40,756 nucleotides of DNA from positions 1 to 40,756 of the forward strand of contig CAMVQX010000001.1 in assembly GCA_947169755.1 (NCBI GenBank), given 5' to 3'. The translations under genes were made by a program, and so were the position numbers. The DNA comes from an uncultured bacterium. GTDB lineage: Bacteria > Cyanobacteriota > Vampirovibrionia > Gastranaerophilales > Gastranaerophilaceae. Positions 16,363 to 31,672 of this stretch are shown in pieces (position 1 is the first letter of the stretch; each line of letters opens with the position of its first letter). The notes beneath the pieces were generated by a model that saw nothing but the letters and a program-made list of their open reading frames with translations, did not search any database and was not told the DNA's origin.

Positions 16363-16782
16363 CTATTTTTTATTAAGTTTAATTTTAATTTTGTCCATGT
16401 AACTCTTAACTGTTTCAACAGTTTCTTTTAATTCAACTGCTTGCTCATTGAGTTTTTCGTAATTTTCAGCTAATACTTGCTGTTCTTTAGTTATATCAAA
16501 ATTTTGTGATTTGTTTTGACAAACGAGAGAAATAATTAACTCAAAATCTTCGTCGCGTTTTGAAGCATCATCATAATCAATACTTGTCTGCATTCCTCCA
16601 TAACCTTCGGGAGTAAAAAATACAATTTGTGGAGTAATTTCTGTTTCTGCTACTGCTTTAAAAGTTCCAGATACATTTTTTGATTTTACATTGTACCGTT
16701 CTTCGTCATGTTTTTCAATTCTTGTAAATCTGCTTAGATTCAACAGTCCTTGATAATGTTTTAGACGATACATCATAGGCAT
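16363..16782 (-). CDS. hypothetical protein
   Basis: 139-aa ORF ending in TAG, in frame with the next gene. Confidence 0.6.
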   Translation of the reverse strand: MPMMYRLKHYQGLLNLSRFTRIEKHDEERYNVKSKNVSGTFKAVAETEITPQIVFFTPEGYGGMQTSIDYDDASKRDEDFELIISLVCQNKSQNFDITKEQQVLAENYEKLNEQAVELKETVETVKSYMDKIKIKLNKK

Positions 16783-29205: not shown

Positions 29206-29307
29206 ACTAAATAATTAATTATTTATTTATATATTCGAACTTTGTATAAATAACAAATATATAAAAACTATTATTGCAATTTTTGAAATATTTTTTGCAA
29301 ATTATTG

Positions 29308-29380
29308 TGCGTCCGGCAGGACTCGAACCCGCGTTAAACCGATTTAGAGGCGGCTGCCTAATCCACTCAGCCACAGACGC
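29308..29380 (-). tRNA. amber suppressor tRNA (anticodon CTA)
   Basis: GCGTCTG/CGGACGC acceptor, loop CT CTA AA, T-loop TTCGAGT. Confidence 0.85.
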
Positions 29381-29468: not shown

Positions 29469-30500
29469 TCAATTGCAACTGCGGTTATTTGATTTGCCAA
29501 GTCGGGTTCTCTTTTTTATTTTACCGTTTTTATCTTTTTCTAAAAATCGTCCTTTTTCCCAACCATTATTGTTATAATATTGAAGTTCTGCTTTGTTTAT
29601 AAGTTTATTTTCAAAATTTTTATGAATCCAAATTTTTCCGTAATTAGGATTTTTTTCACCGGAAATATCAGGCATGTGTTCTGATATTTTTTTCTTAGTT
29701 TCATCACTTAAAGTATGGCCACAACGATTTGGCTTTAATTCTCCTGAAATATACCTTGGATCATTTTTATAAACAGAATAAAATTTTCCATGTTTATCTT
29801 TTACTGTAATTCTTCCTTTTGTTGGATGAATATATTTTTCAGAATCATAATCTTCTTTTTTTATTCTTTTATATTTTCCGTCTTCTGTTTTTACGTTTAC
29901 AAAGCCTTTTTGTATTGGAACTAATTGTCCTGACAATACTCTTTCGTCGTAAATGGATACATTATATACACAGCCTGTATTGTCAACATACATACTTCTT
30001 TCTTTTTGAAATGAAACTAATTCTCCAGATAAATATCTTTCATCGTTTACAGGAACTCTATATGTTTTTCCTGATAAATCTTTAGTTAAAACAAAACCTT
30101 TTTGTATTGGAACTAATTCTCCAGATAAATATCTTTCATCTGTCATGTCAACCATAAAGGTATTATTGTCATTATCTTTAACAGAAATCTTGCCGTAGCA
30201 TGCACTTCCTCCAGCACCGCCAGTACAAATATTATAACACTCGTTTATATTAATTAAATCTTCTGTAACAACTTCTGCTTCATACTTGTATGCTTCGGCT
30301 GCTGTATTAAAATATTTAAGTATTTCTTTTACAAAATTTTCAATTCCGTATTTTTTATAAGCATAATGCAATCTTTTTCCAGATCCCATATAACCGTCGT
30401 TTATATCATCTGTGCTGTGTACTCCATAATAAAAATGGCCATTAATTGTATTTGTTATTTTATAAAAATAATGATACTTTGATATTTTATATTTATTCAT
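29469..30500 (-). CDS. GIY-YIG (Seg-like) homing endonuclease
   Basis: Same N-terminal domain as 28258-29205, ~25-aa DERYLSGELV repeats, NUMOD3-like LSDETKKKIS. Confidence 0.85.
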   Translation of the reverse strand: MNKYKISKYHYFYKITNTINGHFYYGVHSTDDINDGYMGSGKRLHYAYKKYGIENFVKEILKYFNTAAEAYKYEAEVVTEDLININECYNICTGGAGGSACYGKISVKDNDNNTFMVDMTDERYLSGELVPIQKGFVLTKDLSGKTYRVPVNDERYLSGELVSFQKERSMYVDNTGCVYNVSIYDERVLSGQLVPIQKGFVNVKTEDGKYKRIKKEDYDSEKYIHPTKGRITVKDKHGKFYSVYKNDPRYISGELKPNRCGHTLSDETKKKISEHMPDISGEKNPNYGKIWIHKNFENKLINKAELQYYNNNGWEKGRFLEKDKNGKIKKRTRLGKSNNRSCN

Positions 30501-30556: not shown

Positions 30557-30865
30557 TTATTTTACTAAATTTAATTCACTAAACAAGTTTTTATGATTTA
30601 AAATAGCCAAAGAAGTAATTTTATTTAAATCAGACTCGATAAAATAAGAATAATCAATATTTAACTTGTCTAATTTATGCATCCAATATTCAACATCTGC
30701 ATACAAATATATTAAATATTCATTATTCCATTGATTTGGAAAATCTTTAATAAAATTCGCAATACAATGTCCTCCTTGAACGCACCCATAAACAGGATCT
30801 AGGGATTTGTCAATTAGAACGTATAATCTTCTTTCGTTCTACAAACCATCAGTCTTCTTTTCCAT
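30557..30865 (-). CDS. PTH2-like (peptidyl-tRNA hydrolase II fold) protein with in-frame TAG at codon 9
   Basis: MEKKTDGL*NERRLYVLIDKSLDPVYGCVQGGHCIANF...WNNEYLIYL...FIESDLNKITSLAI; no other start between the TAG and the conserved core. Confidence 0.65.
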
Positions 30866-31286
30866 ACTTTGCCTCCCACTCATTGATTTGATTGATTACT
30901 GCGCGAGCAGTATCTTCAATTTGGTGCCACCAATTTGTGTTGTACTCTTCGGAAAGAATCCAACATTTTTCTCCGCAACAGCGAATTACTGCATTTTTGT
31001 ACGTCTCTTCGTCAAATAAAACTTTAACAGGATTTCCTTTCCAGTCTTTTCTGACAACTGAGTCAACAAAAACGGGAAGCTCAATGCGATGTTTGCAAAT
31101 ATAATAAGCAATATATTTTATACAAAGCGGATAAGACGTATGTCTCAACTGTTCTGCAGCGTCATAACTGCTCATTTTGCGTTCACCGACTAATTTAACG
31201 GTTTTTCTTTGATTTTTGAGAAATCTCTGTTTCTCTGCATCTTGTTTGATTTCTTGTTTAATTTTTGATATAATGTTTTTTTCCAT
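30849..31286 (-). CDS. hypothetical protein, coupled to the PTH2-like gene
   Basis: 145-aa ORF overlapping the PTH2-like start. Confidence 0.7.
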   Translation of the reverse strand: MEKNIISKIKQEIKQDAEKQRFLKNQRKTVKLVGERKMSSYDAAEQLRHTSYPLCIKYIAYYICKHRIELPVFVDSVVRKDWKGNPVKVLFDEETYKNAVIRCCGEKCWILSEEYNTNWWHQIEDTARAVINQINEWEAKYGKED

Positions 31287-31346
31287 AATTCTTAATTTTA
31301 TTTTTGTTTTTAATTTTTGTTAATAACTCCGATAAAATAAGAACTA

Positions 31347-31415
31347 TTAAGGAGGAACTTTTATATCAGCAATCTACAAGAATCCAGATGCAATCTACAT
31401 AAAATCTGTACCCAT
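31347..31415 (-). CDS. putative leader peptide with two in-frame TAG, ending Pro-Pro-stop
   Basis: MGTDFM*IASGFL*IADIKVPP-TAA, 60 nt upstream of the operon start. Confidence 0.5.
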
Positions 31416-31524: not shown

Positions 31525-31535
31525 ATATTAAAAAT

Positions 31536-31672
31536 TTGCGGAAAGTAAATACTCAATTGCTCTACCAGACTGAGCTACCTCCTCAATATTGTTTTTTTTT
31601 TTGAATTGCGAGGAGGGCAGGATTCGAACCTGCGACACATTGACCCTCAAATTATAGGAACCTTCTTTGCAA
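31536..31672 (-). ncRNA. circularly permuted tRNA-like RNA (Leu-GAG loop) inside the terminal-stem motif
   Basis: 3' half (31650-31609) precedes 5' half (31584-31553); GAGGAGG/CCTCCTC acceptor, ATTGA/TCAAT anticodon stem. Confidence 0.85.

Follow-up and report, generated by a model that had tools for sequence, protein, structure and literature searches.

The window, meaning the whole 40,756-nucleotide stretch of DNA analysed here, is an entire contig (CAMVQX010000001.1) of a 1.58 Mb assembly (GCA_947169755.1). It carries 30 tRNA genes and phage-type genes and is related to large phage contigs and to the Lak phages of Prevotella, so that a phage contig binned with a bacterium is its most likely identity. 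The module under study, together with one ORF that interrupts its span, consists of the following features:

31347..31415, minus strand: leader ORF, the proposed sensor, reading MGTDFM-TAG-IASGFL-TAG-IADIKVPP-TAA (from sequence and conservation)
31395..31397, minus strand: gate TAG 1, leader codon 7
31374..31376, minus strand: gate TAG 2, leader codon 14
31347..31355, minus strand: Pro-Pro-TAA, the predicted stall site (from sequence)
31282..31353, minus strand: predicted hairpin, starting at the Pro-Pro-stop and reaching the ATG of ORF1 (fold z -2.8)
30849..31286, minus strand: ORF1, a basic helical protein of 145 aa belonging to no named family or fold
30557..30865, minus strand: Pth2-fold gene, overlapping the end of ORF1 (alternative in-frame ATG at 30883)
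30839..30841, minus strand: gate TAG 3, ahead of strand 1 in the Pth2-fold domain
29469..30500, minus strand: homing-endonuclease-like ORF (NUMOD3 match), outside the module, separating the tRNA from the Pth2-fold gene
29307..29380, minus strand: suppressor tRNA with anticodon CTA, G1:C72, A73 and a 31:39 mismatch (pairing by eye)

The two-amber leader at 31415-31347, described in the first-pass annotation as having the same context after each amber, reads as stated there, with ATTGC directly after both TAGs. An Rfam search of the leader matched no family. No intrinsic terminator was called between the leader and ORF1, so transcription attenuation is not favoured. The effector step, overlooked in the earlier reading, is predicted to be a hairpin that buries the ATG of ORF1. 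The leader ends in KVPP-stop in the window and in xPP-stop, RGP, RSP, RASP or RPP in relatives; a RAPP, RGPP or RAGP C-terminal end was absent from the window leader and from the listed relatives. Contigs from RNA libraries of relatives spanned leader to ORF1 in three cases (X14, X16 and X18), a continuity from which transcription cannot be inferred. Directly upstream of a tRNA-Arg and the leader, at 31529-31654 on the minus strand, lies a YrlA-type Y RNA-like Rfam match (43 bits, E 2.4e-7), which falls under the gathering score of 69.

The downstream gene had been proposed to be PTH2-like, and a predicted Pth2 fold was supported by AlphaFold and Foldseek. The AlphaFold (AF2) model, run on 39 sequences of the family, reached a pLDDT of 95; its top Foldseek matches were 3erj, 2zv3, 1q7s and 1xty (probability 1.00 and TM 0.70-0.77 against 3erj, 1q7s and 1xty), and phage proteins named peptidyl-tRNA hydrolase were matched as well. 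By sequence, 0/39 members matched the PF01981 profile at E 0.1, hhalign of the family against five PF01981 members was not significant, and a PDB sequence search with the family returned nothing. Relative to the five PF01981 members, the family retains Q-x-x-H and has an invariant Tyr in place of the Lys four residues ahead of the Gln, and E-P-D-L replaces the D-x-G-x-T loop in a register set partly by eye. The Lys and Thr of Pth2 have a catalytic role. A catalytic Asp in the Pth2 loop is described in the available part of 10.1101/2024.11.20.624519. With both the Pth2 Lys and the D-x-G-x-T loop replaced, it is uncertain whether the modelled protein is an active peptidyl-tRNA hydrolase.

The start 8 codons before the TAG, earlier called the only one, is indeed present (ATG 30865), but a second in-frame ATG lies at 30883. 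Both ATGs are upstream of the TAG at 30841-30839, and under code 11 no ORF of at least 50 aa was listed downstream of it. This N-terminal TAG is retained in the closest relatives (L091, L092, L094 and L095) and is therefore not an assembly error. Gln at the TAG position in database homologs was rejected as evidence, given that the DNA of the closest loci has TAG and that some database translations follow an alternative code (in P0172, the final residue is a W placed at TGA).

The CTA tRNA, placed 1.2 kb downstream by the first-pass annotation, was found at 29380-29307, at a distance of 1.18 kb. The intervening endonuclease-like ORF is skipped in the relatives' contigs X17 and X18, and in L091, L092, L094 and L095 about 285 nt separate the tRNA from the Pth2 motif. 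Homing-endonuclease-like ORFs (GIY-YIG, HNH, zinc finger) sit between the tRNA genes of the window at 30500-29469, 29205-28258, 33690-32899, 38348-37494, 40240-39404 and 26972-26475. We compared 88 distinct suppressor genes with 877 ordinary tRNAs. G1 was present in 87/88 suppressor tRNAs (A73 was judged by eye), C33 in 38/88 compared to 31/877 ordinary tRNAs, and a 31:39 mismatch in 27/88 compared to 50/877. Since C33 and the mismatch are enriched, the suppressor tRNA looks like a weak decoder and, seemingly, a deliberately weak competitor. ARAGORN labels the CTA tRNAs of the module Pyl; the occurrence of the same tRNA body with TCA and TTA anticodons argues against a pyrrolysine system. In the TGA-recoded phages L003-L006, a 96 nt selenocysteine-type tRNA with a TCA anticodon was called upstream of the Pth2 motif, at a distance of about 650 nt, and is distinct from the tRNA family of the module.

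The window itself appears to use the standard code. Coding density was 0.70 under the standard code, 0.73 with TAG read through and 0.72 with TGA read through (computed on these 41 kb only), and the relatives G001, G002 and G003 show no sign of TAG recoding. TAG terminates ordinary ORFs elsewhere in the window (those ending at 16363, 14701 and 37494), which speaks against TAG being simply a genome-wide sense codon, the outcome named earlier as fatal to a regulatory reading. A read-through fusion at the TAG at 16363 was considered and dropped, as 0/6 homolog matches spanned it.

To assess conservation, we collected 170 loci including the window, which reduced to 145 distinct loci and 71 clusters at 85% identity, and scored the leader in the 63 clusters having 700 nt upstream. 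The pattern comprised an ATG, up to 12 codons, a stop, up to 22 codons and then PP, RGP, RSP, RASP, KGP, RGTP or RGSP. It was present in 55/63 clusters, compared to 81/1200 random and 87/1260 shuffled windows (about 7%); this count is partly circular, because the motif list was drawn up after the first loci had been inspected, and the distant clade described below is the fairer test. One match (L066) looks spurious. Among the eight misses, L061, L072 and L088 have variant leaders by eye, L073 is without ORF1, and L079, L084, L085 and L087 have neither a leader nor an adjacent suppressor tRNA. Each fully fetched record held one such leader (8/8), and a GTDB scan returned one locus only. Comparison across clusters indicates that the frame, the stops and the Pro-Pro-stop, whose conservation the first-pass annotation had left to be checked, are all conserved. 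The Pro codons after the gate vary synonymously and the Ser of RSP is encoded by both AGY and TCN, suggesting that the residues are kept at the peptide level. When 58 leaders were folded, a stem began at the codon after the motif with a median z of -3.3 (below -2 in 45/58 loci and not below in 13/58), and in 50/58 its outermost pair was no more than 6 nt away from an ORF1 ATG; the stems are AU-rich and their sequences do not align across loci.

The gate codon matched the nearest suppressor anticodon in all 48 clusters that had both (TAG/CTA in 43, TGA/TCA in 3 and TAA/TTA in 2). The matching clusters are kin and not independent; on the tree, the TGA-gated group has one or two origins and Lak one. 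L137 was scored from its proximal ATG, and a farther TCA tRNA is also present in L003 and L004. No tRNA was called for six TAG leaders: three loci are short, two have a CTA tRNA by eye and L001 has none; near the TAG leaders of L001, L101 and L118 a suppressor tRNA was not found. Both gates, in the leader and in the Pth2-fold gene, match the adjoining suppressor tRNA, in line with the earlier reading. A stop ahead of the Pth2-fold domain was present in 14/145 near loci, TAG every time, and stop position within the gene varies; in the other near loci the gene would rely on coupling to ORF1. In L011, L068, L093 and L113, ORF1 and the Pth2-fold domain form one frame divided by TAG. In part of the TGA-gated group (L002, L031, L098, L102, L104 and L106), ACG replaces the overlapping ATG of the Pth2-fold gene, which suggests a non-canonical coupled start.

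We then compared the gate codon with the genetic code of 25 genomes. Of these, 8 were fetched whole or nearly so and the others were sampled, with 8 kb only for the Lak records. In-frame TAG did not exceed 1.9 per 1000 codons in the 20 TAG-gated genomes (G025 being ambiguous), and three of them (G007, G013 and G019) are TGA-recoded. Conversely, the three TGA-gated and two TAA-gated Lak genomes are TAG-recoded, with 3.1-13.6 in-frame TAG per 1000. Another five genomes, likewise sampled, use the standard code; among them is the TAA-gated fragment G176, in which TAA is the main stop (19/21). In none of the 30 sampled genomes, one of them ambiguous, was the gate codon clearly the recoded codon; G008 carries separate CTA tRNAs elsewhere in its genome. 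These in-frame stop counts imply that the gate uses a codon still serving as a stop, and the module avoids the recoded codon. The first-pass annotation had linked the module to a genetic-code switch. Although some carriers are indeed recoded phages, 5/5 TAG-recoded genomes with a leader gate with TGA or TAA, and the TAG-gated set is TAG-poor, so that link is very improbable and did not survive the comparison. Just as improbable is the absence of any regulation, in which the stops are tolerated under a constitutive suppressor at an early stage of recoding: the available text of Borges et al. (10.1101/2021.08.26.457843) does propose that the suppressor is gained before recoding, but the stops here occur in no gene other than the leader and the Pth2-fold gene, are retained over deep divergence and switch together with the anticodon.

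A distant clade of 30 loci was reached later via ORF1, and 19 were examined after removal of duplicates and two known loci. The usual order there is Pth2-fold gene, leader, ORF1. The leader was present in 16/19 and a called suppressor tRNA in 16/19, and 17/18 Pth2-fold genes had a stop directly before the domain, mostly at codon 3. L325 is a separate TAA/TTA case, with TAA in both leader and Pth2-fold gene and a TTA tRNA; all three components have changed together. An ATG-x-TAG start was found in the huge phages LR756500, 501 and 504 and in the cultured Tenacibaculum phage pT24, in which a CTA tRNA was absent within 2.5 kb and the CDS annotation takes a later start codon, an example of gene callers overlooking or truncating the genes of the module. 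The corresponding sequence is GTG-TAG-GTG in Myrna and ScoobyDoobyDoo, both of which have a downstream CTA tRNA, and their second GTG could bypass the stop. The homolog in Stenotrophomonas phage RAS14 corresponds to the C-terminal domain, with no gate or tRNA nearby. In L301, L302, L304, L305, L309 and L316, the leader-ORF1 spacers are 120-145 nt long and carry nested repeated hairpins inside the main stem.

Leader-peptide translational attenuation is known from ermC, secM-secA and mifM-yidC2, and the footprint of a stalled ribosome is established. Given the directly observed anatomy, conservation, codon-anticodon covariation and avoidance of the recoded codon, we consider it probable that the module is a read-through-triggered translational switch of the attenuation type, for which we infer charging, read-through and stalling and predict the hairpin. 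By default, ribosomes would terminate at the first TAG, the hairpin would conceal the ATG of ORF1, and ORF1 and the coupled Pth2-fold gene would be off. Once the suppressor tRNA outcompetes the release factor, ribosomes would read through both leader TAGs and stall at Pro-Pro-TAA; with Pro in the P site, the stalled ribosome would cover the 5' arm of the hairpin and free the ATG of ORF1. The third TAG would gate the Pth2-fold protein itself, and three serial read-through events would sharpen the response. ORF1 and the Pth2-fold protein are likely made only when the amber stop is overridden, and the input would be how much charged suppressor tRNA there is relative to release-factor activity, at a codon that remains a genuine stop. 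Serial stops would also set a threshold for a developmental timer, in which the tRNA accumulates in the course of infection and ORF1 and the Pth2-fold gene come on late in a role unrelated to termination stress. The tRNA lies either upstream or downstream, as suits an input rather than an output, and a timing model for recoded phages is presented in the available text of Borges et al. (10.1101/2021.08.26.457843), but a timer leaves the constant output of a tRNA-acting fold and the weak tRNA features unexplained, and we regard it as improbable.

Stalling at Pro-Pro-stop in E. coli is reported in the accessible part of 10.1101/751305. Precedent for stalling covers Pro-Pro-stop and RAPP/RGPP ends, and not RGP-D, RSP or KGP ends. 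The module shares with ermC, secM-secA, mifM-yidC2 and the RAPP-like arrest peptides (PMC12992588, as far as available) a short upstream ORF with a Pro-rich arrest end and a hairpin that covers the downstream start until a stalled ribosome opens it; here the hairpin is predicted and the stalling putative. It differs from ermC, SecM and MifM in its proposed input, which is stop read-through by a co-encoded tRNA and not a drug or translocation force, and from RAPP/RGPP peptides in its PP-stop, RGP and RSP ends. The regulatory principle is known, whereas the input and the parts are not.

ORF1 has homologs in 407 clusters at E 0.001 and no Pfam or PHROG family or Atlas match. Its structure model is confident, but Foldseek gave a best E above 1, and VIA reached Z up to 7.1 only on generic helical hairpins, yielding no assignable fold. 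In L015, L020, L117, L121, L132 and others, no stop follows RGP/RGTP and the reading frame of the leader continues into that of ORF1; a leader-ORF1 fusion could therefore be a further product of read-through. As for the purpose of the switch, the most likely one, at roughly even chances, is that it deploys peptidyl-tRNA rescue when termination falters. We suggest only tentatively that it is a dedicated sensor of termination failure, built from a weak tRNA, a stop-gated arrest leader and a new two-protein machine for peptide release or tRNA rescue, which would counter a host defence acting on translation termination; the tRNA would be calibrated against host release factors, and the machine would pair ORF1 with a Pth2-fold enzyme whose active site is new. 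The altered active site could mean a new substrate, and ORF1 is basic with conserved Q20, K24, R27, K28 and R36, features expected if the suppressor tRNA were an anti-host tool reading host stops and the two proteins its antidote, deacylating or sequestering that tRNA in negative feedback. The available text of PMC12386605 proposes host-directed suppression, with TAG rare and backed by a second stop, and among possible gate-codon targets only the ORF1/Pth2 junction emerged from a search that was noisy, returned mostly self matches and does not prove absence. Yet Lak and L325 gate with TAA, the phage's own main stop, at which strong suppression would harm the phage, and the suppressor anticodon arms look weakened; we hold this anti-host role to be unlikely.

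In the available text of PMC8346664, a TAA suppressor tRNA is reported in 51/51 Lak genomes with no target given, and in that of PMC12386605 the CTA tRNAs of Zeta crAss-like phages are called 'non-functioning', again with no target reported. A TTA tRNA directly precedes the TAA-gated leader in Lak-B6, A1 and C1. The module is a candidate target for the Lak tRNAs and may be one for those of the Zeta crAss-like phages. Like the suppressors of Borges et al. (10.1101/2021.08.26.457843, available text), its tRNA is phage-borne, reads a stop and gates stop-bearing genes; unlike them, its codon is not recoded and its identified targets lie only in its own module, and the words 'leader' and 'peptidyl' were not found in the text available from that source. 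A suppressor tRNA by itself is thus not evidence of recoding, and the joint change of gate and anticodon would explain why many phages keep suppressor tRNAs for unrecoded codons. Compared with Pth2 (PF01981) and the jumbo-phage PTH2 (PMC7824862, available part), the predicted fold and Q-x-x-H are common, and the lack of a Pfam match, the Lys-to-Tyr change, the shortened Asp loop and the stop-gated expression differ. In a synthetic feedforward loop (PMC7969014), too, expression of an amber-bearing gene is put under AND control by a suppressor tRNA; the loop is engineered, and no arrest peptide is apparent in its available text. A description of the module was not found in the openly accessible main texts searched; neighbours of these tRNAs may be tabulated in bioRxiv supplements. 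The proposed switch, if real, would be a natural case of gene control by stop-codon read-through. It draws attention to two translation proteins that are uncharacterised and, possibly, to a host defence directed at termination. The window additionally carries phage-borne MetK, IMPDH/GMP reductase, UDP-glucose dehydrogenase and gp30.3-like genes (10639-9392, 7591-6461, 23710-22304 and 27552-27052, respectively).
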